DNA of 64,000 nt from Candidatus Altimarinota bacterium. Lineage in GTDB: Bacteria; Patescibacteriota; Gracilibacteria; BD1-5; UBA2023. The position numbers and the translations under genes are program-made. Of the stretch, positions 1 to 18,497 are shown piece after piece. Numbering within the stretch: position 1 is the first letter of the stretch; each line of letters opens with the position of its first letter. The notes below the pieces were generated by a model. That model saw nothing but the letters and a program-made list of their open reading frames with translations, searched no databases and had not been told where the DNA came from. The DNA lies in contig JAYVJC010000042.1 in assembly GCA_043769645.1 (NCBI GenBank), positions 990-64,989 of the forward strand, written 5' to 3'.

Positions 1-2530
1 CAGTGTAGGCAACGCCATTGAATTTCTCATATCCATACCCCTTCGTCCCATCCCAATCCGATATTGTCTCTCCCGAGTATGTGAGTACCGTATTGTCATT
101 CATCGTGACCGTGAATCCTACTCCGACCGTATTGACCGTGACGACTATCTCTCCGGTTGAGAACTTCGTGACATTCGTCATCACATCTCCAATATCGAGA
201 GATGAGGTCGAGACATTCCAGTCGAGCTGATCCAGGTAAAAAGTGGTAGACCCGGTTCGAGTATTTCCCTGATTATCCTTGACCGTGACGTCGAATTTGT
301 ACTTTCCAAAGGCTCTCCCTGAGGAAGTATAGATGGCAGAACCCGAATTGATAGTTGTCGCCGTCAGAACTCCAGTCTGAGTAATCCAGGTTGAAGAACC
401 CGTACTCCACTTTGCAAGGGTTCCCGTCGCGGTGGTCTGATTGATCGCGCTTCCAGTATCGGAGTAATTGAATGAGAGGGTCACCGTGTTTCCAGTAGGA
501 AGTAGTGATCCTGTGAGTGGAGAAATACTCGAAATCACGGGAGGAGTCGTATCCGCCGGAGGGGCAGAAACCGCAACCGTGAAGGTCGAGAAGGCGGTAT
601 TATTGGTATTGTCGGAATCGGAAGCATTGGTGAGTGCGACATCAAACCTGGTCGTGAGTCCTGAAGCGGCTGGTTTGGGTTGGACGATAATATTAAATGT
701 ATCACTGGCAAGGGAGGCAAGTGTCATCGACTTCGTACAAGTAACCGTCGCTCCGGAAGCGGCACCACACGACCAACTATTTGAGGTAAATGGAGTGAGT
801 GGTCCCGTCATCAGAGTGCCAGAATATGAAAAAACAATGGTATGGGTTCCTGTAGAACTCGCATTTCCCGCATTGGTGACAGTAATCGGAAGTGAGGAAT
901 CGACTCCGACCTGCATCGGGAGTGAGCTTGGAGAACCGATTCCGGGTATTGGATCTGGAACATTCGCGGCTACATACGGAAGCATGCGCCATTCAAGAGA
1001 GCCAGTACGAGTTCCGGCACCCGTTCCGAAATTCCAATTCACTCAAAAACCAAGATCTCATGAAGTCGCCTGAATTGTATTCGCAAAATCAGTTCCTCCA
1101 GTAATTCTCGAGGCAACAGTCGCATATGGACCAGCTTCGGCCGCTGTCCACATCGCTCCAGAAAGATAGCGGATAGCAGAGAGTTGATTGAGAACGCTAT
1201 CGAATACTCATACCGTTTGTGATGGTGCCGATCCTGAGTATCAGACATCATTTGCGTCCGCTCCACCAATAGTAGTATCATTTCCTATATAGAATCGCAC
1301 ATTATTGGTATTAGTCACAGGAATACTAACTGACCAGTCAATCGTAAAGTATTTATTCGGAGCGGTGTATTTCCAGTTGAGTATACCGGTATAGGTCAAT
1401 CATCCAACGACTCGAGTAAGGGTCGTAATCCCAGTATAGGTATTTCCAATTTGGCTTCCCACGGTTGTATTGGTAGACCATGCCGTAGAAGTAGTAGTGT
1501 AGGTAGCAGCTCAGTATGTCGTTGCTCCAATACGCATATTAATCCAAGTACCAAGGTTCGTAGTACATCCACTTGCTGGAGGATCCCCCTGATAAATATT
1601 GGCAGCTCCGTTGTAATAGAGCTGGAATTGTCCGCAATCTCCGATGATGAGCTTGAGATCATTGGAACCCGCAACTCCACCCGTCGTATTCATCGTATAG
1701 CTTGAAGCTCCACAGGTATAGAAAGTAATTTTTCCCCCCTTGACGGTTGCTATCGCCGAAGGCGCATCAGTCGTTCCATCGCTATTACAGTGTGAATTGG
1801 CATCTGTGCTGAGACCCATAGTAGAGTAATCAGCATCTCCGGTATGTTTGACTAAGATATCGAGAAAGGTTCCATCTCGAAAATCAGCATCCATTGTCAC
1901 CTTGACGGGCTTCGAGAAGAGGAGATGCTCGCCAGGAATCCCGAACTCGAAATTTTTTGATTCATCTGGCGTAAATTTGATAGCTTCACCCGCAAATACT
2001 TCGCTCGGACGGAGTACATCGGCAATCATATCGAGCCAGGAGAATTTTTTCGGAGTGATACGCTTCCCCTGTCGAGTCCGTTCACTCTGATAGACCTTCA
2101 TAGAGCGCTTAGCAGATATTTTTTCTTCATCAGAAAGGTCTCGAACCGCAAGTAGTGATGGATCAATTACATCCCCACTCGCTGACTGTATTTCCACTCC
2201 CGCTGGGAATTCGACCGAGAGATTATTCTTCGCAAGGGAACCACTACTCATCACAAGTCTCCCTGATTTTTCGAGGTGGACTTTTTTCGATTTCTGGAGG
2301 TATCCGAAAATAAGCGATGATTCGCGCTTCTCCTCCTGGATAGAGGGAAGCTGATCCAGGACCGTATCATCGATCGATTCCACACTCGAGTAGGTTTCCA
2401 TCTCGGTACTCGGAAGCTCATCGAGGGAGTGCTCATACGCAAAAGCTGACTCCAAAGGAAGTGTCACATCCATACAAAATACTGCGACAATAATGGTGAG
2501 CGAGATGCAGCGACGGACGACTCCTTTCAT
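1..2530 (-). CDS. Large secreted cell-surface repeat protein (N-terminal ~840 aa in window; C-terminus runs off the window start)
   Basis: Track ORF 1511..2530 has a signal-peptide-like N-terminus (MKGVVRRCISLTIIVAVF) and ends at a TGA. The same frame stays open toward position 1, with only TGA and no TAA/TAG in the stretches I translated by hand (722-900, 1202-1510). The sequence is Thr/Ser/Gly/Asn-rich. Around 720-880 it reads PITVTNAGNASSTGTHTIVFSYSG...NSWSCGAASGATVTCT, the pattern of DUF11/CARDB-like Ig-fold surface repeats. Confidence 0.65.
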
Positions 2531-2828
2531 AAAAATTTATTTTTGTTCTTGAGTCAATTTTAGCACAATAGCCAGAGAAAAAACAGAAAATCAGCTTGTA
2601 GTAATCTATAGAATATTCGTAATATAGAATATCGGTCGATTTCCCTTGACTTTCCCTTTGGAAGGAGGATACTACGCAAACAAAAAGTTCGAAAAAACCT
2701 CGACTTTCCATTTCAGAAAAGATCCCGTCTTCCCATTCTTCCTAAGCTGCAAATCAGCTCATCAGCTTTTTCCTTCCCAGCATCCCAGTAAACTAGCCAA
2801 TCAACATTCAAATTATAGCATCGACTGG

Positions 2829-2851
2829 ATTCCCGTTTTCACGGGAATGAC
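2829..2851. repeat. REP-like hairpin ATTCCCGTTTTCACGGGAATGAC (family copy)
   Basis: Inverted repeat TTCCCG-loop-CGGGAA followed by TGAC. Near-identical copies occur in either orientation at 40013-40035, 40131-40153 and 42435-42457. All copies are intergenic. Confidence 0.8.
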
Positions 2852-2978
2852 AGAACCAGCTAACCAGCCAACTTGCAAACTAGCCTTCCCTCCCCTCCCA
2901 GCATCCCAGCTTACCAGCTCCCTCTTCCCAACATCCCAGCTTAACCAACCTTCCTAATCTCCCAACCTTCCTACTTCT

Positions 2979-4049
2979 ATGCGTTTTACCCTCACCTGCC
3001 AGTCATGACTCGAATCCCTCGTCCGACGAGAAACCGAACGACTCTGACTCACCGAACTCTCTGGTAGAGATCGAATGGTTTCGGCATCTGGAAGCGAGAA
3101 AAATATGTATGAACTCCTGATTTGGAGTCGATTTGCCAATCGCGTCTATCTCAATCTTCTGGAAGAGAAAATAGTGGATTTTGATGATTTATTTCGAAAG
3201 GTCTATGCTCTTGATTGGCAGAGATTTCTCGGCTCCGAGCTCCGGTATATCGTCGATGCTTCGAGTACTCGTTCTGTCCTCTCGAGTACTCCAGCTCTCC
3301 AGTCCGTCACGGAGCGAGCGATACAGGGAAAGCTCTCAAGAGACAATGGAAAATCTGAGGCTGAGATCCATGTCCTCGTCCTCGTCATCGATGATACCGT
3401 CCAAGTCCTCCTCGATATCACTGGAGAAGCCCTCCATAAACGAGGGTACCGACGAGAAGCTGGAGAAGCTCCTATCAAGGAAAATCTCGCCGCGGCCCTC
3501 GTCGCCTTCTCAGGGTGGAGGTATCGTGAATCCCTCCTTGACCCCTTCGCCGGGAGTGGGACCATCCCGATCGAGGCCGCGATGATGGCACGTAATATCG
3601 CTCCAGGACTCGAGCGGACCTTCCGCATCGAAGACCTCCCCTTCTACAGTATCGCGCTCCTTCGAGAATCCAAACTCGATGCGAAAGCAAAACAATACCC
3701 CAGTGGAGACTATACGCTCTTCGCTTCGGATATCGATACTGGGATGCTCGATATCGCTCGAGAGAATGCGAGGCGAGCTGGAGTCCTCGGTGATATCACA
3801 TTTGAAGCTCGGGATTTTCTCTCAACGGCAAGCCTTTCAAATACGAAATCTACCATCGTCACCAATCCTCCGTACGGAAAACGAATGGGAGGAGACCATC
3901 TTGAGGAAATATATATGAAACTTATTTCAGAAATCGCAGAAAATGGTGGTGGTTTTATCACCTCCTATGAACTTCTGAAGGATCACCACCTCGCCAATAA
4001 AAAACTCCTCAATGGAAATGAGGAGTGTCGGTTCTGGTATAGGAAATAG
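2979..4049 (+). CDS. THUMP-domain SAM-dependent RNA methyltransferase (RlmL/RlmK, COG0116-like)
   Basis: Track ORF 3075..4049 extends in frame (2 TGA=Gly) to ATG 2979. This gives a THUMP-type N-terminus MRFTLTCQSGLESLVRRETERLGL. DPFAGSGTIPIEA (SAM motif I) and NPPYG (motif IV) are present. Confidence 0.85.
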
Positions 4050-4261
4050 GCAATGTGTAGTTTCTTGATACTCTTATTTCTTGATTCTATGAGTGACAGT
4101 TTTTTTATAGAAAAAAGTATTGAAATAAAAACTTGTAGGTATTTTTAAAAGTCACAAAACAAAGTTTACATTTGATTTTCCTGAGAGAATTGATACTGTT
4201 ATTCTGGATTTCTGATTTGTACTAAAGTATACCTTCCGAGTTTAAGAATTTATTCATAAAT

Positions 4262-5725
4262 ATGAAGACAGCACTTGTGATATGATCTGGCATAAGTGGA
4301 CTGGCTATCGCTTGTTATCTTGCGAAGGCAGGCTATAAGGTGCAGCTATATGAGAAAAATAATCAACTCTGATGACGATCTGGCCTCTTCCAAGAAGCAT
4401 CATATACCTTCGATATGTGACCTTCATGGTATCTTATGCCTGAGATATTTGAAGAATTTTTTTCATATTTTTGAAAGAAAACATCTGACTACTATACGAG
4501 CGAAAAGCTTCATCCAGCATATCGGATATTTTTCTCTGATCAGGATTTTGTAGATATATCGACGAAACTCGAAGATAATATAGAGCTTTTTGAGATTCTA
4601 GAGCCATGAGCATGAGAAAGACTATTAGAATATATATCTATCGCAAAAGAGGAGTATGAAGTAGCAATAGGATCTTTGATCCAGAAGAATTATGATTCAT
4701 TCAGTGATTTATTTTCACTGAAGGGTCTCCGATTTATAGCAAAATTCAAAAATTTCATAAGCTATGAGTCATATGTAAGAAAATATTTCTCATCACCGAA
4801 ACTCCAGAAAATTCTCCTCTATACCTCTGTTTTTCTTGGCTGAAGTCCGAAAAATACACCCGCACTCTACTCACTCATCAACCACTGTGACTTCAATGAT
4901 GGGGTATACTTCCCAAAAGGCTGAATATATTCTCTAGTTCAAGCATTCGTATCTCTCGCAGAGGAGCTCTGAGTAGAGATGCATACGAATAGAGAAGTGA
5001 AGAAAATAATGATAGAAGATGGGAGAGCTCTATGAATAGAGCTCGAATCATGAGAAATACTCTGAAGTATCGTGGTATCAAGTGGCGACTATCACTATGC
5101 AGACCAGGTACTCATAGATCCAAAATATAGACAGTATACGCAGAAACAGTGGGATTCTATGACGCTTTCACCGAGTGGATTTATACTGTATCTCGGGATA
5201 CATAAGAAAATCCCAGCATTGCAGCATCATACGTTATTCTTTGATCCTGATTGGGATAATCATTTTGATTCTATATATAAGGATAAAACTCTTTGTGAGA
5301 CTCCCTCATACTATGTATCTTGCGTGAGTAAGACTGATACTTCAGTTGCTCCAGCTTGATGTGAAGCAGTATTTATTTTTGTGCCTACTGCTACATGACT
5401 CAAGCTGAGTGAGTGAGAGAAAAACAAGTATGCAGATAAGATTATCTCTGGACTTTCTCGAGCCATCTGAGAAGATCTTGCATGATGTATAGATATGCGG
5501 AGGATATACACCGGAGATGATTTTTCGAAGGATTATTTTGCCTTTGGAGGCAATGCTCTGGGTCTTGCCCATACTTTTAGGCAGACACTGACACTCAGAC
5601 CCAAGAATAAACATCCGAAAGTTTCTTGACTCTATTTCACTGGACACTATACAACGCCTGGAACGGGTATGCCGATGGTACTTATCTCATCGAAACTCGT
5701 AAAAGATAAAATTTTAGCAGACTAA
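4262..5725 (+). CDS. crtI: Phytoene desaturase
   Basis: ATG at 4262; the frame is open to TAA 5723-5725 with about 13 in-frame TGA. The N-terminus is MKTALVIGSGISGLAIACYLAKAGYKVQLYEKNNQLGGR...FDMGPSWY (FAD Rossmann fold plus CrtI signature, with TGA on the conserved Gly). Track ORF 5072..5359 is the middle of the gene. The C-terminus reads GLYFTGHYTTPGTGMPMVL. Confidence 0.9.
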
Positions 5726-5735
5726 TACATCTACT

Positions 5736-6575
5736 ATGGGTGCCCTACAACAATCTCTCTTCAAAAAATCTTCAAAAACCTTTTATTATAGTACTCTATT
5801 TTTCCCGAAGTATATTCGATCAGATATACATGATCTCTACGCATTTGTAAGAACAGCTGATGACTATGTGGATACTCTGCCTCAGGATAGAGAAGCATTT
5901 TATCGATTTCGTAATAATTCACTCTCGGCCCTCGATCATCCAGATACGCGATCTCATGATCCTATCATTGCTTGATTCGTCGATGTATATAAGAAGTATG
6001 ATTTCAGGAAAGAGTGGGTAGAGTCTTTCTTACAGGCGATGGAGTCAGATCTATCGGTCGTATCTATGACTGATGGAGAAGCGCTAGAGAAATATATGTA
6101 TGGGAGTGCTGCCGTAGTATGATATATGATGTGTGCTATATTTTCTATAGATGATCCCGATAGCCTCTATGCTGCAAAAATGCTCGCATACTCTATGCAG
6201 TGTATAAATTTCATACGCGATGTCGCTGAAGACAATGAACTCGGAAGAAAGTATCTTTATGATATCGGCGGCATACGCCATAGTTGACTGATTATTCAAG
6301 ATGAATATTTATCTCCATTTATAGATCTCCACCTGAAAAACTATTATGCGTATCTCCGCAAAGCACAGGCATGACTCTATGATCTCCCTCTTGCCTTCAG
6401 GGTACCAGTCCTCACAGCAAGCGATATGTACGCATGGACTGCCAGAGAGATAGAGAAGAATCCATCTGTTATCTTCAAAAGAAAAATAAAACCTACAAAG
6501 GGGCAAATTATGATCCATGCAATACGGAACTTTATAGTAGAGTGAGTATGACTTACTCGTTTGATGAAATCATAG
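5736..6575 (+). CDS. crtB: Phytoene synthase
   Basis: Track ORF 5736..5975 continues in frame (5 TGA) to TAG 6573-6575. Squalene/phytoene synthase Asp-rich motifs YAFVRTADDYVD and NFIRDVAEDNELGRKY are present. Confidence 0.9.
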
Positions 6576-6663
6576 AGTGCAAAAAAATCATCTGACCTCT
6601 AGGTTCACCTAAGATGGATTATTTATTAGAATTTGTAGCAGAGTGAACGAGATAAAAATCATT

Positions 6664-7500
6664 CTAGATTTTTATCCTCCTATACATCCTGTGCATCGTG
6701 ATAACATGAGGAAAACTCAAGCAGGCTATAAAAATAAAAAATAATCCCCACTGTGAGTAGGCATCGCTATAATTCGTAAGAGGCCAAAAAAAATAAAATA
6801 ATCCTCATATAATCCAAGCACCTACATGAAATGGAAGCGACTGTAACCAAATATCTTTACTCTCTGTATGAAGGTATATTTTTAGGTGTTTCCAGCCTGT
6901 GAGGCTATGTTGTCCGATAAAGTATATGCCAAATGCGAATAATAGAGGAATTTGACTCGAGAGTATGAGAAAGATTATAGTAAGAAACAGTGAGAACTGT
7001 TTCCTATATATCGCCCAGAGGAGCCAAGGGGTCAAAAACCAAACTGGAATAGCAAATAGGAGTGGAAGACTGCCAATAGAAGTGAGAATGGTATTCGTCT
7101 CATCGAAGTGTGTCCCGAGGATATATACGAGCACAGAGATACCCCAAAGGAGTGAAGTCATACAGTCGAAATCCCAACTCTTTCCATCTGCTTCTCCAAA
7201 ATGCCACATAGAATAGAGTAGGAATACGATAAGTGCTATTTGTGGTATCCAGAGCCATAGTATTCCCATCATTAGAGCAAGGAGAAGATATCTCAAGATA
7301 AATATCGGTGCTTTTCTCTGATTCCATAAACCCGCTCCGAGTAAATGATCGACCGCCCCATGTGGTATACCTACCGTGATCATCCCGAGAGCAAATAATA
7401 TGAATCCTATCTCAGTCTGGAAAGAGGTATACTGTCCAAGAAGTATGAAAAACAGAGTTATAAGTATCAGTACTGACGGTCGAAACCATGGAGAGCTCAT
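6664..7500 (-). CDS. blh: Brp/Blh-family beta-carotene 15,15'-dioxygenase (retinal synthesis)
   Basis: Track ORF 6805..7500 continues past TGA 6805-6807 to TAG 6664-6666 (278 aa). It is a multi-TM protein with His motifs GIPHGAVDH, MWHFGEAD, IGQHS and SFPHV, as in Brp/Blh enzymes. It lies between crtY and crtB, close to a rhodopsin gene. Confidence 0.8.
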
Positions 7501-7518
7501 AATTTTTTTAGAGAGAAC

Positions 7519-8682
7519 TCAGAGAAATGGTTTCCAAGGTAACTGGTAAAAAATAGATATTTCTTCGCGTATATTTGTTTTCTCATCCAGGAATTTGAGT
7601 GTTTTCTGGATATCTATTTTTTGGAGCAATGTCATAAAGATAGACTTGCCATACTCTGGAGTATTTTTTAGGATATCTAAAAGGAGAGAATCATACCATG
7701 TGAAACGACTTTGTAGAATCGCTCTATACTCTCTACTCGGTATATCCATAGTTTCACTTTTCTTGAGAGCTAGAGCAATGTCGAAAGCCTGACGATACAT
7801 ATTCTTGAAGGCATACCCCGTACTTGCCTTGATATTATAGTTTCTTGCCCCGATATTTATGACGCCTTGTATGCTTTCGTTTTGGATCCTCCTCTGAGTC
7901 ATGGGGATACATCCTATTTCGATATCGATTCGCCTGAATGCTCCGTACGATTTCTGGATATATTTTTTTAAGATTATTTCTGCTTCTCGAGTCTCGATAG
8001 CGAGTTCACCAAAACGTGTCACTTCTACTAAGGCTCTCGTAGGAGAAAAAGGGAGTACATAAACAAACTGTGTACATCCTTGTTGTTCTATATCAAAATC
8101 CATAAATCGAAAAACCTCAGGATCTATGATATCACCATCGGTCTCGATCATCCAGCCTACGAAACTCTGGAGGATATGCGGTGTTCCAGTTTTTAGCGCC
8201 TCGTATGAGGGAGTACGTGAATCAAAGACTCTATCTCCTCTCACTTTTATATCATTTAGTTCTACAAAAATCCCTTCATCATTTCTAGAAATATGAGTTA
8301 TAGGATGTATGAGTATATCCCATCTATGAATCTTTATAAGTTCTTCGATCTTATGATAGAGATCACTACTATCGATATGATGGTATGAGAGGGGTGAGAG
8401 ATTTATGGGTTCTTGAGTACAGAGCTCAAGCTTATCCCATGACTTTGTGATGAGATCTTTCAGATGGAGGGAAATAGGCTCATCTGCATACGACCAAAAA
8501 CAAAAAGTTTTATCTTTTCTATTTTTCTCCTCTTTATCTATAAGCAGTACTTTTTTACTCGTCAGAAGGCCATTTCGAAAGAGTTCTAAGATCAAGAGTG
8601 AAGTAGAAGCACCCATGCCACAAAATATATAATCATATTTTGAAATATTTTTTTCTCATATTTGCAGCTTATTTTTTCTCAT
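7519..8682 (-). CDS. crtY: Lycopene beta-cyclase (FAD-dependent CrtY type); its terminal codon is TGA, in frame with blh
   Basis: Track ORF 7519..8616 is extended to ATG 8680-8682 so that the dinucleotide-binding motif KYDYIFCGMGAS is included. Length (~387 aa) and context fit CrtY. The end at 7519-7521 is a TGA, a sense codon under table 25, followed by 6 codons and the blh ATG in the same frame. Confidence 0.8.
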
Positions 8683-8863
8683 TATACTTATAAAAAGCTT
8701 ATAAAACTCATCTCAAATAAAACGATAGAATCCTACAGTTTCTAAGAGAAATGATCAGTTCTTATGAAGTATATCGATTTTTTAAAAAAGCAAAAATATA
8801 CTGCAATTTTTCGCACGTAAGGCTAGAAAAATACTATTGTAAAGGAAAAGTGTATATAAAAAC

Positions 8864-8891
8864 TTGAGTAAAAAAATATATTCATTAATAT
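8864..8891 (+). promoter_or_regulatory. Candidate sigma70-type promoter for the rhodopsin gene
   Basis: TTGAGT, a 16-nt spacer, then TAATAT, about 35 nt upstream of ATG 8925. Pattern match only. Confidence 0.25.
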
Positions 8892-8924
8892 TATATTGTT
8901 TTATTCTTTATCCTTTTCTTTCCT

Positions 8925-9674
8925 ATGGACATCACAGTAGCGCAATTCGACTTGGTATACAATGCCTTCTCATTTGCCTTAGCGGGTATGGGTGCAGCGA
9001 CTCTCTTCCTCTGGCTCGAGCGATCTCAAGTCGCTCCACAGTATCGTACCGCGCTCACTATCTCTGGACTCGTGACGGCGATAGCGACATATCACTATTT
9101 CCGTATTTTCAATAGCTGGGATGCATCCTATTCGGTGGTAAATGGAGTCATCGCATCGACAGGACATGCTTTCAATCATGCATATCGATATGTAGACTGG
9201 CTTCTCACTGTACCTCTTCTTCTCGTAGAACTCCTACTCGTGATGAGCCTATCGAAGAAGGAAACATATTCAAAAGCACTTTGGTTCGGACTCATGGCAG
9301 CGATCATGGTCATCCTCGGGTATCCTGGAGAAACTTCTACTGATATGTCTACGAAGCTTCTGTGGTGGGTTCTTAGTATGATACCATTTGTCTATCTTGT
9401 GTTTCAGCTCTTCGTCGGACTCAGTGATTCTATCAAGTCTCAGCCGGTAGGAGTAAAAGGCCTCATAGTGACAGCACGATGGATCATCCTCGCTACTTGG
9501 TGTTTCTATCCTATAGTCTATATCCTTCCTCTTATCGGATTTAGCGGTGGGGATGCTGATGTTGCAGTACAAGTCGGATATACGATAGCGGATCTTCTCG
9601 CAAAAGCGGTATTTGGTATATATATCTACTTCATCGCCGTACACAAGTCTGAGGGATGAGTTCATAAAGCGTAG
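8925..9674 (+). CDS. Microbial type-1 rhodopsin, proteorhodopsin-like outward proton pump (DTE motif)
   Basis: Track ORF 8925..9659, then TGA plus 4 codons to TAG 9672-9674. Seven hydrophobic helices. Helix C RYVDWLLTVPLLLVEL aligns with proteorhodopsin RYIDWLLTVPLLICEF (D91/T95/E102). Leu99 sits at the spectral tuning site (green type). Helix B TYHYF carries the conserved His. Helix G TIADLLAKAVFG carries Schiff-base Lys227 (codon 9603-9605). Confidence 0.9.
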
Positions 9675-9723
9675 AACTAAATACTATGCATAGCATAATA
9701 GTCAAGCCGGTGTAAAATCATAA

Positions 9724-9758
9724 AAACCAGTGAGTCTGATGACTTCATTGGTTTTTTT
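9724..9758 (+). terminator. Intrinsic terminator downstream of the rhodopsin gene
   Basis: AAACCAGTGA-loop-TCATTGGTTT stem (10 bp including one G-T pair) followed by a T7 run. Confidence 0.7.
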
Positions 9759-9790
9759 AAAAAACTGATACCCGTATCTGAATCATAAGT

Positions 9791-9826
9791 AAAAAAACCT
9801 CTCAGGACCCTGAGAGGTTTGATTTT
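9791..9826. terminator. Bidirectional hairpin terminator
   Basis: Perfect 11-bp stem AAACCTCTCAG / CTGAGAGGTTT with a 4-nt loop. It has an A-run on the 5' side and a T-rich 3' side. Confidence 0.6.
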
Positions 9827-10130
9827 GGTATAAGAAAAACTAGCCTCCAATAAAAAAACCATCTTGATCTGGCTCCGAATTTGGATTTCAAGAAACGATA
9901 TCATCTTTTACTCATCTACAACCAAGAATCCTATCAAAAGCTTGTAAACGAAGCTGCCGAGCAAGATCTGGATTATGTCAGTATCGAATATCTATGGCAT
10001 GATAAACACTAGAAAGATGTGGACCTCAGTCTGGTTTTTCCATTGTTTGATGAGTTATATAAATCTCATAGTAGACTTTTTCATTTAATTTCAAGTAATT
10101 TTTTATTTTATAATCTTATAGAATAGGGCT

Positions 10131-10481
10131 CTATAACAGATTCACTCCGAATTTCCTCATAACAATTGCCAAGGAGAGAAAAAGAATAATCGTAAGCAAG
10201 GCGGAAGCTATAAGGGCCCAGGTGAACCCGAGTTTTGTGAGGAGCGTCGGGAATAAGTAAAACATCGGGAGCGTCGGAAGCACGTACCAGAAGGTATAGT
10301 ACGCATGATTCGATATCTTCTCGAGTGGCGTCTTCTCTACGTACATCCAGATCATCACGAGGATGGTGACAAGAGGTAGTGAGGCGATAAGCGCTCCGAC
10401 TCGATCATATCGCTTCGCGACTTCGGAGATGAAGACCACCATACCAGCAGTGAGGAGGTACTTGAAGAGAAGGTAGTACAT
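10131..10481 (-). CDS. DUF3147-family small membrane protein
   Basis: Track ORF of 116 aa with a true TAG stop and four hydrophobic segments. The sequence (..VSEVAKRYDRVGALIASLPLVTILVMIWMY..FWYVLPTLPMF..) matches my recollection of DUF3147 proteins. Confidence 0.6.
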   Translation of the reverse strand: MYYLLFKYLLTAGMVVFISEVAKRYDRVGALIASLPLVTILVMIWMYVEKTPLEKISNHAYYTFWYVLPTLPMFYLFPTLLTKLGFTWALIASALLTIILFLSLAIVMRKFGVNLL

Positions 10482-10546
10482 ACTGTATAATTATTTAGGG
10501 GTAATTCCTTCTATTATATAGGAAAAGCGATATCTGCGAAAATAAT

Positions 10547-10577
10547 CCCTCTCTTTTCGGAGAGGGTTAATTTTTTT
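10547..10577. repeat. CCCTCTC-loop-GAGAGGG hairpin element with T-run
   Basis: Stem CCCTCTC / GAGAGGG followed by TTAATTTTTTT. The same hairpin core occurs twice inside lysS (30894-30916, 30939-30961). Confidence 0.6.
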
Positions 10578-10699
10578 ACTGATAGCCGGTTGGAGGGGAA
10601 AATTCAAAAAGTTACTAGATTATTTCTTAAATCTTTATTAAAAATAATTTGACTTTTATAATAATAATTTATAATAAATATATATTAATTCTTTCAAAT

Positions 10700-11125
10700 A
10701 TGAATCAACAAAGACTTAACCAACCACACATACAATCCAAAATCAGGAAATCTGGAGGGATGGGGACAATAAAAGAAGCAACAACAAGAACACGAGTTAA
10801 TGATATGTTAGAAGCAAAAGGTTGAACTATCGAGTTACAACTTCAGGACATGATAGAAAGGCCATCGTTATATGCCCATTTGGATGATTCCCGTCATACA
10901 CTCTTATGACTAGCATTGTTAGAAGCTGATAGAAAATGAATAGTTTGACCAAAAAATAGTCACAGACCGAAATTAGATAAACTTAGAGAACTAGAAAGAG
11001 CTGCTGGAGTAGCTATCGGAAGAATGAAAATTGAAATTGCAAATACACTTCCGGTATGAATAGAGAGAATTAGATTTATGACGATTTGAAAGGTGAAAGT
11101 TACATTGTGAGGAGAGCTTATTTAG
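10700..11125 (+). CDS. Hypothetical protein (141 aa after recoding)
   Basis: ATG 10700 to TAG 11123-11125, open only if 7 TGA are read as sense. The translation looks protein-like (..LELQLQDMIERPSLYAHLDDSRHTLLGLALLEADRKG..). No family recognised. Confidence 0.4.
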
Positions 11126-11187
11126 TGCGAAATACAAAAAATCTCTCAGAAATTGTATACTAACTTATAATTCTTAACTTTGCATCT

Positions 11188-11748
11188 ATGCTAAATAATT
11201 ATGTAGCTCCAGGGGTACCTTCTGCGAAATTTCTTCTTCCTACAGGAAAATCACTATCTATTAGTGTAATTGAATCAAACAGGGATCTAGTATCTTGAAT
11301 AACAAGTTCGATTGATTGATTTAAACATACGGATATTCATTGGCTAGCAAGAGAAGTAGATTACCATATGCTATGGAATTGGCGAGATGAAGAAAACTGA
11401 AAATGAGAAAAAGAAGATCTAGAAGCAAAGATGGATACCATACTCGAGTGAAGTGAGAGTGTTGGCTTTTTACAAAATATACAACTTCTTATCAATTTCA
11501 TGAGGCAACTACTGACAAAGTATGGAGAAAAATTTTATGAAAAAATGCTTAGTTTCGATGCTGGAGAAAAAGAAGATGATTGTGGAAACAATAAAATGTT
11601 TCAAAGTGATAGACTATGAGAATGTGTTCTTTTATGAATCAGGCTTGGAATCGATAGTACTATCATTGATCGTTGGAAATGAAAACTCAGAGAAGAAAAC
11701 TCAGAATATATATCAGAAAATACCTTTCCTGAAGATAGAAAGTACTAA
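11188..11748 (+). CDS. Hypothetical protein (186 aa after recoding)
   Basis: ATG 11188 to TAA 11746-11748 with about 8 in-frame TGA. It competes with track ORF 11522..11827 in another frame, which overlaps a tRNA gene. No family recognised. Confidence 0.35.
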
Positions 11749-11805
11749 TTGGAGCACTTCAACAAAATCTCCCACATTTCGTGAGAGATTTTTTGAATTT
11801 TTTGC

Positions 11806-11880
11806 TGGTAGCGATACGGAGAATTGAACTCCGGTTCCGGGAATGAGAATCCCGTGTCCTAGCCACTAGACGATATCGCC
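11806..11880 (-). tRNA. tRNA-Glu (anticodon CUC)
   Basis: The reverse complement folds as a cloverleaf. Acceptor GGCGATA/TATCGCT, D-arm GTCT..GGAC, anticodon stem CGGGA/TCCCG with loop TTCTCAT, T-arm CGGAG-TTCAATT-CTCCG, discriminator A and an encoded CCA. Confidence 0.85.
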
Positions 11881-11960
11881 AAAGAAAGTATCAAGTTTTC
11901 AAGTAAAAAGTCTTCAAGTAAAAACTTGAGAACTTTATCACCTTCTACTTGATAACTCTA

Positions 11961-12395
11961 TTATTTCTTCAAATCCGTCGTAATCCCCATCGATCGAGCA
12001 GAACCCGCGACGATAGTGATTGCGGCGTCGATATCATTGGCATTGAGATCGGGCATTTTCCCCTCAGCGATGACTCGCATCTGATCCATCGTGAGGTGTC
12101 CGACCTTGACTTTGTGAGACTCCTTCGATCCGGAAGCGAGCTTGAGTGCATCCTTGATCCACCACGTCATCGGAGGTTGCTTCGTATAGAAGTCGAAGGT
12201 TCGGTCTTCGTAGATATTGATAACCGTCGGAAGGATCTTCCCCATCTGATCTTTGGTTTTGTCGTTGAACTGCTTACAGAAGTCAGCAATTTGGATACCG
12301 GTAGGCCCGAGAGCCGTACCGACTGGAGGTGCAGGGTTAGCCTGACCTGCCTTGAGCTGGAGTTTCACCACTCTGGTTGGTTTTTTTGGAGCCAT
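11961..12395 (-). CDS. rplK: 50S ribosomal protein L11
   Basis: Track ORF of 144 aa with a TAA stop. MAPKKPTRVVKLQLKAGQANPAPPVGTALGPTGIQIADFCKQFN is canonical L11. Confidence 0.97.
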   Translation of the reverse strand: MAPKKPTRVVKLQLKAGQANPAPPVGTALGPTGIQIADFCKQFNDKTKDQMGKILPTVINIYEDRTFDFYTKQPPMTWWIKDALKLASGSKESHKVKVGHLTMDQMRVIAEGKMPDLNANDIDAAITIVAGSARSMGITTDLKK

Positions 12396-12817
12396 AATAA
12401 TAGTTGATAGATACGATTACCGTTCGGGAAGTTCGGTAACAATACGAGGAAATATGAACAGAAGCTCGTGTATTATAAAAAAAATCGTGAAAATGCAAGT
12501 GAAAAAGTGACAGAATGGAAAAAATAAGATAAGATACGGGTATGGAAAATAATTTAGAAAAAAATAGAGAGGATTCACCTCCCGAAGTGCGACTTCCTAT
12601 AGTATCGCGTGAGCTGAGACAAAAAGCAATAATAATAGCTGAGTTTAGGACCAAGCTCCCTCGCGATTCTGTCGTAAAACCTAGAGTTGAACCTTCCTCC
12701 TTTACGGTAGAAACGAAGTGAGATATCATTATCGACTACGATATCTCCATGGTGGAAGGAGGAACAAAAGTACGAATACGATCCATGGAAAACAAGTACT
12801 TACTTTCACGTTATTGA

Positions 12818-13117
12818 CTACAAATTATACGAACTCCTGAATGAATGATTACTCTTACCACTAATATTCTTCTGCTCATAGATATCATATATAATCCTAA
12901 AAAACATGGACTCAAAGCTATATCTCTCGAGTATATAAACCCAGAAGCGCATATCATAGGAGAATCCCTCTCATGAGAAAAATTCAGACTGAGTGTTTTT
13001 GATGATATAGGGGATATCGAGGAAAGAAATCTTCTTATCAAAGCTATTATAGGTAGTATTCAAAGTTGACCTATCCCCATACCATGAGGAAAAAATTCTT
13101 AGCAATTTCTTCGTCAT
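12818..13117 (-). CDS. Hypothetical protein (99 aa after recoding)
   Basis: ATG 13115-13117 to TAG 12818-12820 with one in-frame TGA. It differs in frame from track ORF 12811..13041. No family recognised. Confidence 0.3.
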
Positions 13118-13184
13118 AAAATTTGCATTTCTCGCACTATTGGATTATGATAGAATAAAGTATGGATTTTATCTTGTGTACTCT

Positions 13185-13898
13185 ATGTCAGAAACTAGTT
13201 CCCTCCCACATACAGAATTGATCGAAGCTATAAGAAAAGCCGTCAGTCCTACAGATAAACTCCTGGTAGGACTTCCTCCGGTGCTCGATTTTGTAGGAAT
13301 TGAATATGAAAAAGATCCTCTGAATCCGGTACACCTCCAAAGTATGATTTCTGGTATTCGTAAAAAACTCGACACCGGAAGACGATCTATCCCTCATAAT
13401 CCGCAGTTCGCAGATGCTATGCGTGAACTCTACCTCGAACTCTCTGGCGTAACCAACAAAGTTCGAAAACTCGCTCCGAAACTGGTCAACTACAATCCAT
13501 ATGCCTACCTTCGTGACCTCGCGGATTACCTCCAAAATCCAGAATATACTGGACTGGACGTGGCCATCATCCAATTCACTCAGACTAATCTCGTAAAGGG
13601 ATGGTTCAGCGGATATTCTCGAGTTTGGAATGTCCTCGAACAAGAAGCTATCGATGCTCTGAAGGAATATGTAGGGATCAGTAAAAACACTGCTATAGAA
13701 GCGGAAGCCCTTTGTGAAAAAATACTCGAATCGATCAATCGGGGATCCAAAACATGGGAATACCTCTCGAGGATCCTTTCAGCATGCGGGGGTGAAGACT
13801 CTGTCTACCATCGATGTCACGAGCAGATCGAATCAGATGGAAGATCTCGCCCACATCGATCGGATCGTAAATTTTTCTCCGATACACTGAACAAATAA
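13185..13898 (+). CDS. Hypothetical protein (237 aa)
   Basis: Track ORF 13140..13898 starts at TTG; the first ATG at 13185 is preferred. TAA stop, followed by a hairpin terminator. Confidence 0.6.
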   Translation: MSETSSLPHTELIEAIRKAVSPTDKLLVGLPPVLDFVGIEYEKDPLNPVHLQSMISGIRKKLDTGRRSIPHNPQFADAMRELYLELSGVTNKVRKLAPKLVNYNPYAYLRDLADYLQNPEYTGLDVAIIQFTQTNLVKGWFSGYSRVWNVLEQEAIDALKEYVGISKNTAIEAEALCEKILESINRGSKTWEYLSRILSACGGEDSVYHRCHEQIESDGRSRPHRSDRKFFSDTLNK

Positions 13899-13915
13899 AC
13901 TATAATCAAATAAAG

Positions 13916-13942
13916 AATCCTGAACTGAGTTCAGGATTTTTT
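13916..13942. terminator. Bidirectional intrinsic terminator
   Basis: 9-bp stem AATCCTGAA / TTCAGGATT with a 5-nt loop and a T-run. It lies between convergent genes. Confidence 0.7.
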
Positions 13943-13980
13943 ATAAATCCATACAAGATAATAGTAAAGAAGGAATTATT

Positions 13981-15375
13981 TTATCGACGGTAGTATTCAA
14001 AATACGCTGATTCGATATCAGTCGAGGTAAGATTGAGCTTATCATTCGGAGTGGCATTTTTGACCGGTACTCTGTAAAACGTCTGGGACTTCTGATCTTG
14101 CCAGTCACAGCTTGTTTCACTACACTCGCTGTTCTCATATCAAGACTTCAGATTGCAGACCTTCGTATCTATATTTTCCTCATAAATGGTTTCTAGAGTG
14201 GCAAAGTTGATATAGGTAAAGAGTTTCTTCCCCCCTCCTCCACAAGAAGTTCCCTCTCCAAAGCGATTATAGAAGATAGCCCCATATGGAGTAATCTTAT
14301 AGAGACCTCCGATGTCTTTTCCGATGGGTAATTTCTCGTTTCGATTGATCCCAGCGATATAGTTCGTATAGAGGATTTTTCCATCTTTTGTGATGAAATT
14401 AATACAGACAGAATCTCAGAAATCCAGACAAGAGGGTTCGATAAAATTATTTGTCTGAATCCCTGATCTTCTCGGATCGGTCGTATAGACAGTATAGGCT
14501 CCGGTTGAGTCTTGTCTCACGATCGAATAGTCATATCCATCAAGGTACTCATCCATGGTAAAATCAACCTTGAAATATTCGCAACCACTTGCGGTACAAG
14601 TTTCCTTGAGGCGGATCCCATTCTCATCTGCGAGATATACCGTACCCGTATTTGATACTAAAGCTCCTGTACTCGAGACTATAGAGTTGAGAGGATCATC
14701 TCATGCTTCAAGAACTCGAGGGATTTCTTTGAGTGTTTTAGCGTCAATTCACTTGATATATCGGAGTTCTCAGGACTCGGGATACTCAGCAATATAGACG
14801 CCTGAACCGTCAGAAAGGCCTATGGCTTCACATCGTTTATTGACTGGAAGTTTTCGAGTAGTATACTCTTTCCCATACACGTAGAATTTCTTATCAAGTT
14901 CGATCCCTCCGACACAGGGATATCGCTTGATTTTTCTGGGTTCATATTTCCCGAGAGGCTCTTCCTTTGAGACGAAATAGAGTTTCTTTCCTATTGTATA
15001 ATACCCTTTGGCAGTATCAACGACTCGAAAATCATCTCGCCATTTTCCCACCTCCCGAGGAGCGTCATCTGCGGTATGAAGCACGAGAATATCATCGACA
15101 ACATAGAGCTTCGTCCGAAGTGATCCAGTGCCGAGAATCAGTGGCTCATAAATAGGTGGTTTTACTACAACAGTATCTTCCGAAGGAAAGACTCCACCAC
15201 TATCGCTGAAACCAGGGATCACCGTATCCTCATCATGGATAGCTGGATTTCCGGTTACCATCGAAGTACTTGGTGGGTAAGGAGTACTCGGGTTCATAGG
15301 AGTTACTCCAGGAGTACTACTACAAGCGGAAAGAAATAAAAGAAGTGAAACTATCACACCCAGAGAGTAGCGCAT
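13981..15375 (-). CDS. Putative lipoprotein (464 aa after recoding)
   Basis: Track ORF 14770..15375 has a lipobox (LLFLSAC). It continues through TGA 14770-14772 and about 4 more TGA to TAA 13981-13983. I translated the C-terminal part by hand without finding TAA/TAG. Confidence 0.7.
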
Positions 15376-15385
15376 AAAAAAAGGG

Positions 15386-16450
15386 TTATAAAACTCTTAC
15401 CGTGATTATATGTTTATTTTTTGAAAGGTGAAGTTTTGCTATAGTTTTTGTCGTCCCTCCATGTGCTGTCAAGATAAATTTGAGCATCTCTTCTATGTTT
15501 CATTCCGAAAGTCCGATAGTCCCAAGATTTGCCACTTCATAGCAGTAGCGGATGATTTCTTTCTGAAAAAATGGAGATTTTTTCTCGAAATCCTCGACTC
15601 AGAAGCTGGTTTTCCCCGCAAGAAATATCCGTATTTCGTCATCAATCCAGTACTTGGTCTCTTCAGTATATTCGATAAAGTTTCCGAGCGCCTGTCTATA
15701 CACAGGATTAATGGTTTCGAATTTCGGGAGGACTTCGTGGCGGAGATAGTTTCTCTGATAGTCAAGACTGATGTTGGTCGAATCCTCTCGGTAGGAGATA
15801 CTATTTTCTGTTGCGTAGATGAGTAATTCTGATTTCGAGATGTGGAGAAGGGGGCGAAGGAGAAGTGATGAGGATGGTAGATGGTGGATGGTGCGTGAAT
15901 TTTCAACAAGAGGGTCAATTGCATATTGAGTCGTCATTCCTACATCGTTAGTATGCTTAACTATTCGCTCTGCATCCTGTAACATTCAACTTGTAACTTG
16001 TAACTGACTCAAAGCATGAATCCCTCCGAGTTTCGATCACCTGATGAGATTGAACACCGCCGTCTCGATACGATCATCGAGATGGTGTGCGGTCAATATA
16101 TATTTTGCTCGATACTTCCGAGCCATGCGAAATAAGAATTCGTATCGGTACTTCCGTGCAGTCGCCTCCACACTCATTTTCTCATCCTGGGCAAGGGCTC
16201 CAATATCGATTTTCTCGACTTCACTCCTCACTCATTTCTCACGACAATACTCGGCTACAAAGTCTCGATCTCCATCACTCTCAGCCCCCCGAAGTGAGTG
16301 ATCAAAATGGGCGACGATAATATTTTGCTTCTGATGATGTCTCAGCAAGAGATCAAGGAGTACCATACTATCGACTCCCCCACTCACCCCGAGGATAAGG
16401 ATATCTTCTCTTTCTATATATCGGTGGTATGTTTCGAGGAATTGCTGCAT
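15386..16450 (-). CDS. tilS: tRNA(Ile)-lysidine synthase
   Basis: Track ORFs 16232..16570, 16037..16231 and 15599..15985 share one frame and are separated only by TGA. PP-loop ILGVSGGVDS lies 20 aa after the internal Met chosen as start (16450). Stop is TAA 15386-15388. Confidence 0.85.
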
Positions 16451-16516
16451 AAAAAGTATTTTATAGAGAAATGTGGAAATACCAAAAAATGATATTTTCT
16501 GGAAATATTCAGATAT

Positions 16517-16545
16517 TTGCAAAAGAAAAAAAGGAATGGTAGAAT
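16517..16545 (+). promoter_or_regulatory. Candidate promoter (TTGCAA-N17-TAGAAT)
   Basis: The -35 and -10 hexamers have 17-nt spacing, 30 nt upstream of ATG 16575. Confidence 0.35.
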
Positions 16546-16574
16546 AAAGGTAATTACTTTCTAAAAACATAAAT

Positions 16575-17684
16575 ATGTCTCAAGAAAAATTAGACGTTTA
16601 TCAGTCTACCAATTATGCTGCTTTGACTGGAAAACTCACATGAAAACAAGTGCTTGAGCTTGCAAATGCTCGGATCAAAAGTAGAATTGACCTACAAAAA
16701 AAAGAGGAACCAGCTAGTGTAGAAGATAGAAAAGCAGCTGAAACATCTCTTTTAGAACTTTCTTTCATACCCACTCCAACTATAATAACAAAATTAGATA
16801 CAGGAAGTTCTCTCGCTACCAAATGAGTTCCAACTGATGCCCTTGCAACAGCAGATACTTTAACTCTCCCTAAAGTGCCAGAGTTATGAGATCTTGCTAG
16901 GGCATTACCACCAATTGCTCCAAAAGTAATTCAGGCCTCGGGAAATGAGGTAGGAGAAGTCAATGTTGATACCCTTATCAATCAAATTCGCGCGGAAAAA
17001 GATATCAATAGAAAAATAGCTCTCGTCCTACCAATGATATGAAAACATCTCTGACTTTCTCTTCCGACTGAACTATCAAAACCGGATAGTCAAAAGTTGG
17101 TACGGAGTTGAGAGTGACAGGTTCGAGTAGTCAACATACGAGGAATATCAAGCATCCTTGGAGATATCGACACGGCGAATCTCGCTCACAAATCGTGAGG
17201 GAAAGAGATTCCAGCCTCACCAGAGCTTTGAAAAATCATAGGTTTACTCTTAGAGGATATTACACCGAAGTACGAACCATGAAAAAAACCTCTCGTCACC
17301 TTTAATAACTATTATCAACTTGAAGATCTCTCCAGAATACTCAATTGAGGACTATGATTTGGAGTGGATCTTCCAGTCAATGATATAATAAGCACTTTTG
17401 CAAGAGCAAATATAAAAGATAGGTTCTTGCTTGGTATCAAAGAATTTACATCAGCTCAAAAAGATGAGGTCAAAGCACTTTTGAAAACATATACTTGATG
17501 AGTTGATTCTCCAGAATGAGTATATAACACTATTATTGCCCGTATGAAGGTATGATGAAATATGCAATCGATTATTGCTAAACTTATGATAGCTATGTGA
17601 TGAGAATACGAGATAAAGTGAAAAGAGCTTCAACAACGAATCAATAGATGAGATTTACAAGGATACACATCAAGGGTTTCCTAG
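16575..17684 (+). CDS. Hypothetical protein (369 aa after recoding, 21 TGA codons)
   Basis: ATG 16575 to TAG 17682-17684. It is open only with TGA read as sense. I translated the whole ORF by hand. No family recognised. Confidence 0.55.
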
Positions 17685-17733
17685 AAGTGTGTGTACGACT
17701 GGAGAGTATTCTCGAAACCATCAGAATTTTAAA

Positions 17734-18042
17734 CTATTTGGAAAGTTTTTCCAGGTTCAACCTCCTCACGAATCCGAGAAAATCATCATCCGGAGCGACC
17801 ATATTCACCATTTCTTTTTCACATTTCTGACACTTTTGGCGGATCATATCTCCCTTATTTTTCCGATAATCGATCCCGATCGGCTTCATGAGTCCATGAC
17901 AATCGGAAAGTCTATCCCCTGGTTTTTCCTCATCGACATGAAGCGAGGTAAGGCAGTAAGGGCAATGGTTTCGAGCAGATCCCGTTGGATGTTTTGCTAC
18001 TTCTTTTTTGCAGTAAAGACAAATAAAGGACTCATTTCGCAT
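17734..18042 (-). CDS. RNHCP domain-containing protein
   Basis: Track ORF of 102 aa with a TAG stop. It contains the literal RNHCPYC motif plus further Cys pairs (CLYC, CQKC). Confidence 0.8.
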   Translation of the reverse strand: MRNESFICLYCKKEVAKHPTGSARNHCPYCLTSLHVDEEKPGDRLSDCHGLMKPIGIDYRKNKGDMIRQKCQKCEKEMVNMVAPDDDFLGFVRRLNLEKLSK

Positions 18043-18133
18043 GATAAATCACATAGGTTGAAAGTTGAAAGTTGAAGAATACTAAGAAAGTATAAAACGA
18101 TAGCAAGTTATTTTTTGACGAAATTGAATAGTT

Positions 18134-18163
18134 GTCATCCCGAGGCATTCGAGGGATCCCTTT
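18134..18163. repeat. Dispersed repeat GTCATCCCGAGGCAYTCGAGGGATCCCTTT
   Basis: A 30-nt copy here and at 38345-38374 (1 mismatch). Both are intergenic. Confidence 0.8.
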
Positions 18164-18497
18164 AGCTGAAATACAAAGATTGTATCATAGAATAGCGATT
18201 CCTCCGCTCCGGTCGGAATGACATATCAAAAGCGATTCCTCCCCTTCAGTCTAACGAGGACTTGAGATCGCTTCGATCAGAATGACAATACTTCTTCTCT
18301 ACCATTTCTACCCTTCTACCTTTTACTTTTCTACCATTCTTACTATTCTCCTCAACTCCGCTTAAACTATAAAACTGTTATATTCTCAAACTCTGTTCCT
18401 TTTCTCCCTTTCCATCGTCTCTCCCGTTCCATCTTTTCTACCTTCTCTACCGCTTCTCCTATTTGCAAAAAAAGAATATTTCTGCTATACTCATACT

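Follow-up and report, generated by a model that had tools for sequence, protein, structure and literature searches.

We analyzed a 64,000-nucleotide stretch of contig JAYVJC010000042.1 (assembly GCA_043769645.1, positions 990 to 64,989; hereafter the window) and found at its positions 4262 to 9674 a gene cluster that is, in our judgment, likely to be a rhodopsin photosystem module in a bacterium that uses genetic code 25 (TGA read as glycine), probably a member of Candidatus Gracilibacteria. The cluster consists of genes for a phytoene desaturase (crtI), a phytoene synthase (crtB), a fused lycopene cyclase and carotene dioxygenase (crtY::blh), and a type 1 opsin. On balance we lean toward the broader reading that the locus is the first evidence that bacteria belonging to the candidate phyla radiation (CPR; Patescibacteria) make retinal themselves, through a mobile, recoded cassette that is found beside either xanthorhodopsin (XR)-type proton pumps or NDQ-motif pumps of the sodium type, that has remained under selection after losing its geranylgeranyl diphosphate (GGPP) synthase gene, crtE, and whose CrtY::Blh protein would be a new bifunctional enzyme converting lycopene to retinal at the membrane.

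Gene cluster and predicted pathway

Profile searches confirmed the identity and position of the genes that a preliminary description of this DNA had proposed (opsin, crtI, crtB, crtY, and blh) once TGA was treated as a sense codon. The phytoene desaturase gene crtI (4262 to 5725, forward strand) encodes 487 amino acids, 19 of them glycines specified by TGA, and matches TIGR02734 at 445.1 bits (cutoff, 238.1) together with PF01593; its score against the CrtID model NF058655 is 609.5 bits, just below the cutoff of 640. In the N-terminal motif VIGSGISG, which binds flavin adenine dinucleotide (FAD) and has the form GxGxxG, the first glycine is a TGA codon, and TGA read as glycine also completes the GGR motif. 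The crtB gene (5736 to 6575, forward strand) starts 10 nt 3' of crtI and encodes a 279-residue SQS_PSY-family phytoene synthase with six TGA codons, whose PF00494 domain spans residues 10 to 255 (153.8 bits; cutoff, 26). Past a 3' remnant of crtE (6566 to 6652, forward strand), the crtY::blh gene occupies 6664 to 8682 on the reverse strand and encodes 672 amino acids with TGA at residues 9, 388, and 626. Its FAD-dependent lycopene cyclase (CrtY) domain covers residues 17 to 386 (7525 to 8634; PF05834, 126.2 bits; cutoff, 23.4), and the integral membrane Blh/Brp dioxygenase domain, which contains the TGA codon for Gly626 (6805 to 6807), covers residues 429 to 666 (6685 to 7398; TIGR03753, 126.9 bits; cutoff, 95.25; PF15461, 111 bits over residues 433 to 666). 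The opsin gene (8925 to 9674, forward strand) encodes 249 amino acids with a single TGA at codon 245 and matches PF01036 at 130.9 bits (cutoff, 24.6) over residues 16 to 238. None of the four genes is interrupted by TAA or TAG, and all are intact. As first described, the opsin and crtY::blh are divergent, but crtI-crtB converge on crtY::blh and not on the opsin.

The family scores support the proposal that the opsin's neighbors encode enzymes for the steps between GGPP and retinal. CrtB would convert two molecules of GGPP to phytoene, which CrtI would desaturate to lycopene; in CrtY::Blh, the N-terminal FAD domain would cyclize lycopene to beta-carotene, and the C-terminal membrane domain would cleave beta-carotene with O2 into two molecules of all-trans-retinal, which would then bind Lys227 of the green-tuned (Leu99) opsin. 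The C40 product of CrtB, phytoene, is assigned here from the operon context with crtI and crtY and should be read as a prediction.

The 242-nt region between crtY::blh and the opsin gene (8683 to 8924) is presumed, from its position only, to hold divergent promoters; sigma-70-like sites are not enriched in it (21 found versus 21.6 expected in shuffled sequence). A palindromic hairpin with an 11-bp stem lies 3' of the opsin (9795 to 9820) and is a possible bidirectional terminator, which the consensus scan supports weakly (four terminator-like sites versus 2.9 expected). No carotenoid-modifying crtZ or crtW was found among the window genes, and no transducer gene lies next to the opsin.

TGA encodes glycine

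When the window is read with table 11, the cluster shows an intact 244-residue opsin open reading frame (ORF), a 231-residue Blh-like ORF, and a 365-residue CrtY-like ORF, and the region from 4262 to 6600 is fragmented. Window ORFs of 100 or more amino acids add up to 58 kb, and to 164 kb when TGA is freed, compared with 84 to 92 kb when TAG or TAA is freed, and about 85% of the window is coding with TGA as sense. The TGA-open ORF map includes spurious ORFs on opposite strands, which the sense reading of TGA inflates; the gene for ribosomal protein L11 (approximately 11961 to 12371, reverse strand), seen in the gene calls of an identical Logan contig, is masked in this way by a spurious forward ORF at 11949 to 12410.

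The preliminary description had assigned TGA to glycine, and this is supported by an alignment of CrtI with 42 homologs of 42 to 49% identity to which the standard code apparently applies. In the 19 columns where crtI has TGA (not about 13, as counted before; crtB has six rather than five), glycine fills 510 of 798 homolog cells (64%) against a background of 6.6%, and six of these columns are invariant glycines, including those of the GxGxxG and GGR motifs. Tryptophan, the reading under code 4, was rejected; it is outside the eight commonest residues at the same columns. Among 28 window TGA positions that could be compared with other recoded contigs, TGA is present at all 28 in the related loci L007 and L008 and at 22 in the distant locus L010, and GGN is the commonest partner where recoded relatives differ. 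These patterns place the window in code 25, not code 4.

A fused lycopene cyclase and carotene dioxygenase

Under code 25, crtY and blh are one 672-residue gene joined through a TGA glycine codon (Gly388; 7519 to 7521) that a table 11 gene caller takes as the stop of crtY; the two had been described as separate genes, and both the fusion and its Bacteroidota origin were missed. The NCBI source record carries the 672-residue product as a single protein (P0250). A single uninterrupted ORF of approximately 655 to 720 amino acids extends over both domains in 73 of 80 related loci, and these 73 are every standard-code Bacteroidota locus whose gene is uncut by a contig end, except possibly L064. All of the 120 top database matches to the fusion carry both Pfam domains. 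The matches are publicly named "lycopene beta-cyclase," "Brp/Blh dioxygenase," or "hypothetical protein," and nothing else. Metagenome-assembled genomes (MAGs) of freshwater and marine Bacteroidota (L009 to L086) carry the fusion widely, usually directly 3' of a proteorhodopsin gene.

The junction TGA sits within a conserved QLPWKPFL-x-AL-KK segment that is unbroken in Bacteroidota, and the window protein is collinear with them through the junction. The orthologous codon in L010, a relative recoded independently, is GGA (Gly), and a downstream ATG usable as a separate blh start is absent there. Four histidines of the dioxygenase domain (H441, H494, H525, and H592) are invariant in the Bacteroidota fusions and a fifth (H659) is present in 72 of 73; the window protein has all five, and its Blh domain is complete only with read-through, because H659 lies past the internal TGA at codon 626. 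An AlphaFold2 model of the fusion (sequence P0250, 60 homologs) has a mean predicted local distance difference test score (pLDDT) of 88.2 and a predicted template modeling score (pTM) of 0.81, with pLDDT of about 95 across the junction; residue 388 lies within a helix (383 to 395) that runs into the first membrane helix (400 to 414). Hydropathy analysis found no membrane segment in residues 1 to 397 and at least seven in residues 398 to 663, and Foldseek assigned the CrtY domain the geranylgeranyl reductase/flavin monooxygenase fold (3oz2, E = 1e-12). Taken together, sequence and model point to a soluble FAD cyclase tethered directly to a membrane dioxygenase that would use the cyclase's product, an arrangement that may favor the hand-over of beta-carotene between the two domains.

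An opsin of the xanthorhodopsin clade

The opsin had been called proteorhodopsin-type, a label that its scores contradict: it matches Gloeobacter rhodopsin (GR; 6nwd) at 258 bits, psXR at 255, Salinibacter xanthorhodopsin (3ddl) at 239, and Kin4B8 at 227, versus about 104 bits for chloride pumps, 87 to 101 for proteorhodopsins, and about 73 for sodium pumps. By this measure it is a member of the XR/GR clade and not a proteorhodopsin sensu stricto. An alignment that is gap-free across the functional core pairs D91, T95, E102, H57, D223, and K227 with GR D121, T125, E132, H87, D253, and K257, and Leu99 with L105 of the proteorhodopsin GPR, so the residues singled out in the preliminary description (the DTE triad, the leucine, the helix B histidine, and Lys227) are indeed homologous to functional ones; Leu99 indicates green tuning. 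The functional motif is shared by the window opsin and its 129 closest database homologs, 130 sequences altogether, and K227 and D223 are conserved in all 127 of the compared sequences that reach helix G. As far as sequence can tell, the opsin has every hallmark of an outward proton pump. At the glycine position of the antenna window (XR G156, GR G178) it has Trp148 (LLWWVLS versus LWGFLS in XR), a tryptophan shared by all 130 sequences, and a single-chromophore pump without a carotenoid antenna is expected because Trp148 replaces this glycine. The window opsin resembles GR (6NWD) and xanthorhodopsin (3DDL) in the D-T-E triad, the helix B histidine, the helix G aspartate and lysine, the leucine at the tuning site, and an alignment without gaps through helices A to D; it differs from them in Trp148, in its code 25, CPR-type host, and in its one TGA glycine codon.

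Relatives of the opsin with at least 80% identity form a small clade, other recoded contigs among them, after which identity drops to 65 to 68% (Proteobacteria and others); identity to the Bacteroidota proteorhodopsins that adjoin the fusion gene is 31 to 34%. The recoded loci L003 and L004 (ERZ27315200; GCA_043770315.1, 1 to 10747) carry an orthologous opsin, 80% identical, with no crt or blh gene within 10 kb. The island around the opsin in those two loci also encodes two DNA photolyases, a DPRP protein related to photolyases, and a flavin reductase.

Deletion of crtE and purifying selection

In L007 (Candidatus Gracilibacteria bacterium OTE_78_metabat_157) approximately 800 nt of additional sequence between crtB and the fusion encode an intact crtE (JANNCQ010000080.1, 2379 to 3272, reverse strand; 297 amino acids; PF00348, 150 bits) in which both Asp-rich motifs are present and seven codons are TGA, so that the L007 operon reads crtI-crtB-crtE and forms a complete set with crtY::blh. 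The 88-nt spacer between crtB and the fusion in the window encodes CrtE residues 269 to 297 (29 codons; 83% identity to L007; E = 3e-9 by tblastn with L007 CrtE), the scar of a deletion of approximately 815 bp. The same deletion junction is found in L001, and the segment missing from the window is flanked in L007 by the microhomology TA(T/C)GATTT(C/A)A. The comparison identifies the window cassette as one that has lost its own GGPP synthase. The preliminary description had reported that crtE and idi are absent from the window; this stands for intact genes, though a crtE remnant of 29 codons was overlooked, and the further claim that the opsin comes with its own, self-sufficient retinal pathway does not survive the deletion.

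With crtE deleted, GGPP must come from elsewhere. The ratio of nonsynonymous to synonymous substitution rates (dN/dS) between the two crtE-deleted genomes is 0.18 for crtI, 0.22 for crtB, 0.35 for crtY::blh, and 0.11 for the opsin. This purifying selection is measured between genomes in which the deletion is shared, and it makes continued use of the pathway, on GGPP from another source, probable. For freshwater Gracilibacteria, a mevalonate route to five-carbon (C5) isoprenoid units, an F-type ATPase, and an NADH dehydrogenase are reported to be usual (PMC9166423), and by analogy an isoprenoid precursor supply is plausible here.

Origin and mobility of the cassette

When 77 fusion proteins were placed in a neighbor-joining tree, those of recoded lineages (the window, L007, L008, and L010) were monophyletic (100 of 100 bootstraps) and nested within the Bacteroidota, with pond and lake MAGs (L009, L012, L013, L035, and L045) as their sister group (87 of 100 bootstraps), which suggests a single entry of the fusion, from Bacteroidota, into recoded lineages. 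Of the 46 Bacteroidota loci with an opsin, 42 have the fusion 3' of, and on the same strand as, a flavobacterial-type proteorhodopsin (DTE motif, methionine as tuning residue); neither crtI nor crtB occurs within 8 kb of the Bacteroidota fusions. The window locus shares with these operons (Flavobacteriales, Chitinophagales, Saprospiraceae, and unclassified MAGs) a fusion of 660 to 700 amino acids and 35 to 61% identity with the same junction motif and histidines, and differs in having a divergent XR-clade opsin and adjacent crtI-crtB where the Bacteroidota have a same-strand upstream proteorhodopsin (DTE/Met105) and no crtI or crtB within 8 kb.

The crtI and crtB genes would have another history. 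TGA makes up 12% of glycine codons (79 of 657) in the window's housekeeping genes, which have a GC content of about 47%, versus 47% in crtI (P = 3e-8) and 46% in crtB (P = 0.002), at 38 to 39% GC; the shares in the fusion (8%) and the opsin (6%) are at the host level. In L010-type genomes the flanking genes use TGA for 43 to 64% of glycines. Relatives of CrtI show 67 to 92% identity inside a tight clade and then at most 51%, and a metagenome scan with CrtI recovered a single close relative. We infer that crtI and crtB have long resided in a TGA-rich, low-GC recoded lineage, and the patterns of relatedness suggest for the opsin a history separate from those of both the fusion and crtI-crtB.

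Comparison of the recoded loci points to horizontal movement of the cassette among them. The RlmL-crtI junction is common to the window and L007, with nucleotide identity of 92 to 97% over 4200 to 8700 that falls to 53 to 77% in RlmL, whose proteins are 55% identical. Against L001/L008 (Candidatus Gracilibacteria GFS_7187), synonymous divergence (dS) is 0.10 to 0.14 for the cassette and 0.78 for the opsin, and the L001/L008 opsin lies on the opposite side of the cassette in another genomic neighborhood. L010 (JAGXIV010000027.1, isolate LH_M94, 4737 to 10093; recoded, 29% GC) has the window's gene order, crtY::blh/crtB/crtI, beside an opsin that has an NDQ motif, matches KR2-type sodium pumps at about 250 bits, and is adjoined by a gene for a Na+/Ca2+ exchanger. 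In L089 (OMKS01018206.1, 20 to 3609; recoded, 34% GC) crtI is followed by crtB and a convergent, unfused crtY that ends at TAA 13 residues past a PWxPF motif. These arrangements suggest a cassette that is horizontally mobile among recoded lineages, with an exchangeable opsin; the earlier characterization of the genes as native therefore holds insofar as they have long evolved within TGA=Gly genomes and fails insofar as the cassette appears to move among those genomes. No integrase or transposase is found among the cluster's neighbors, and a search for flanking direct or inverted repeats or insertion sequence (IS) elements around the cluster returned only short, low-identity, chance-type matches.

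The proposed history is that crtY::blh derived once from freshwater Bacteroidota, where a proteorhodopsin gene normally precedes it, and joined a crtI-crtB(-crtE) operon long resident in recoded genomes; the resulting cassette would now circulate among code 25 lineages beside different opsins. In the window genome and one relative crtE would then have been deleted, with GGPP now supplied by another prenyltransferase or by a host.

Other features of the window

A gene at 10131 to 10481 (reverse strand) converges on the opsin and encodes a 116-residue PRK09272/BV97_02767-like membrane protein; it has no TGA codons and the window's highest GC content at third codon positions (0.65), is not conserved beside the opsin in relatives, and may be a recent import. 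The lysyl-tRNA synthetase gene (30541 to 32628) bears a C-terminal DUF2000 domain. Two forward-strand ORFs without a Pfam match are unusually TGA rich: one at 16575 to 17684 (369 amino acids, 21 TGA codons) and one at 55114 to 57315 (733 amino acids, 18 TGA codons) that looks rich in coiled coils. A further protein without a Pfam match, encoded at 2 to 2530 on the reverse strand and running past the window start (more than 842 amino acids), is rich in Thr, Ser, and Gly, has an N-terminal hydrophobic segment, and is likely secreted or surface located.

Alternative explanations

An assembly or binning artifact, in which a foreign (e.g., Bacteroidota) cluster was wrongly joined to a recoded contig, would fit the lower GC content of the cluster (37 to 39% versus 41 to 48% in the flanks) and the Bacteroidota identity of the fusion gene's nearest standard-code relatives. 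But TGA as glycine is required to read crtI, crtB, crtY::blh, and the opsin alike, and the flanking housekeeping genes (RlmL, TilS, PilB, GlmS, LysRS, GlyRS, RecG, and DnaJ) likewise contain TGA codons. A Logan assembly of run SRR22198278 (L087) reproduces window positions 131 to 19341, across both boundaries of the cluster, without a mismatch and with one gap, of 7 nt, at 18056; a contig from a second run (SRR23617290; L088) matches 8492 to 11844 at 100% and covers the opsin's right-hand junction. The RlmL-crtI junction recurs in L007, conservation of TGA sites extends over three recoded lineages, and L21, nitroreductase, HxlR, the fusion, and the opsin are all on one NCBI contig of 83,749 bp. 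An artifact is excluded for practical purposes, in line with the original view that the cluster is not a chimera with standard-code DNA. Scarcely more credible is a sensory, inward-pumping, or other-ion function for the opsin. The function of the opsin does vary at this locus, as the related cassette of L010 stands beside an NDQ opsin, but in the window DTE, the helix B histidine, D223, and K227 are positioned as in Gloeobacter rhodopsin, a characterized outward proton pump, the same residues occur in all 129 closest homologs, and no transducer gene is adjacent.

The cassette might instead serve mainly to make a photoprotective carotenoid in a high-UV habitat, with retinal supply secondary. 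Its relatives are from MAGs of glacier-fed streams and lakes, and the photolyase genes around the L003/L004 opsin suggest a context of light stress; we nevertheless think this very unlikely, as the cyclase is covalently fused to a cleaving dioxygenase, with residue 388 in a confidently modeled helix, which favors cleavage over accumulation, the cassette adjoins an opsin in every recoded locus that is long enough (the window, L001, and L010), and neither crtZ nor crtW is present. More weight, though still in our opinion a rather low probability, attaches to a decaying pathway, in which the crt genes have made no retinal since crtE was lost and the opsin, if working, uses retinal scavenged from a host or neighbors. 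The crtE scar, the lack of any other polyprenyl synthase in the window, the opsins of some Gracilibacteria (L003 and L004) that lack crt genes within 10 kb, and the precedent for retinal scavenging in CPR bacteria (PMC9296517) all fit such decay. Set against these are four intact genes under purifying selection (dN/dS of 0.11 to 0.35) between genomes that share the deletion, the C5 isoprenoid routes reported in Gracilibacteria, and the capacity of housekeeping prenyltransferases to supply GGPP.

Several results weigh against our preferred reading, that the cassette supplies retinal to a proton-pumping opsin in a code 25 bacterium. At the level of equivalog models, CrtB falls below cutoff (HpnD, 94.8 versus 278.6 bits; NCBIfam CrtB models, 50 to 86 versus 480 to 550), as does the CrtY domain against TIGR01790 (61.7 versus 209.5 bits). 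No tRNA-Gly(UCA) was found in the window, which has only tRNA-Glu and tRNA-Gln, or in nine short related loci. The 64-kb window contains no GGPP synthase or other polyprenyl synthase, no IDI, no gene of the mevalonate or methylerythritol phosphate (MEP) pathways, and no ATP synthase; the absence of a polyprenyl synthase was cross-checked by tblastn with L007 CrtE, since the ORF map masks some genes. Finally, the fusion tree is a neighbor-joining tree only, and the dN/dS values come from the simple Nei-Gojobori method.

Relation to known systems and implications

The classical proteorhodopsin cluster of marine Proteobacteria (opsin with crtE, crtI, crtB, crtY, and blh) suffices for light-driven proton pumping in Escherichia coli. 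The window clusters the same enzymatic steps with an opsin and shares its logic as a transferable and self-contained photosystem, but its crtE is deleted, its crtY and blh are fused, it has no idi, and its genes are TGA recoded. Fusions of consecutive enzymes, including a cyclase followed by Blh, are known from eukaryotes (thraustochytrid CrtIBY; Thecamonas CrtI-CrtB-CrtYc/d-Blh; PMC10016063); unlike those, which have a heterodimer-type CrtYc/d cyclase, the window fusion is bacterial, has an FAD-dependent CrtY-type cyclase, and comprises two domains only.

Type 1 rhodopsins of Saccharibacteria (SacR) have been shown to pump protons outward, carry a DTS motif, and occur in genomes without blh, and scavenging of retinal has been proposed for them (Jaffe et al. 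2022, PMC9296517); that report bears out the lack of blh behind the earlier remark on scavenging by rhodopsin-bearing Saccharibacteria. SacR resembles the present case as a type 1 rhodopsin in a CPR bacterium, with a proposed role as auxiliary energy source in a fermentative, reduced organism, and differs in its motif, its clade, and genomes without blh or carotenoid genes, whereas the window encodes enzymes that would lead from GGPP to retinal. Gracilibacteria rhodopsins with a DTE motif and Absconditabacteria rhodopsins with an NDQ motif have been reported (Jaffe et al. 2021, PMC8406219), and one putative proton-pumping rhodopsin has been counted in Gracilibacteria (Chiriac et al. 2022, PMC9166423); neither paper mentions blh or carotene. 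In the open-access literature we found no description of retinal synthesis by CPR bacteria, of carotenoid synthesis in Gracilibacteria, or of CrtY fused to Blh in a bacterium, which is not proof of absence. A DTE opsin in Gracilibacteria is thus already known, the kind of module is well known, and the sequences are public; what appear to be new are its presence in the CPR, the crossing of a genetic code boundary, the fused CrtY::Blh, the modular pairing with different opsins, and the readable crtE deletion.

The locus would be a clear case of genes crossing a genetic code boundary, in which a Bacteroidota gene entered TGA=Gly genomes and then gained TGA codons, one of which, at the domain junction, makes standard gene callers split crtY::blh in two. 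CrtY::Blh, as predicted from its sequence, is a natural single-polypeptide module from lycopene to retinal and could serve retinal production or the engineering of optogenetic strains.

The prevailing picture of CPR bacteria, to our knowledge, is one of biosynthetically minimal, fermentative episymbionts for which hardly any means of building a proton gradient is known. If a Gracilibacteria lineage keeps the enzymes from carotenoid to retinal under selection, some CPR bacteria would be seen to invest in an O2-dependent membrane cofactor pathway for phototrophy, which would change the meaning of host dependence for them.

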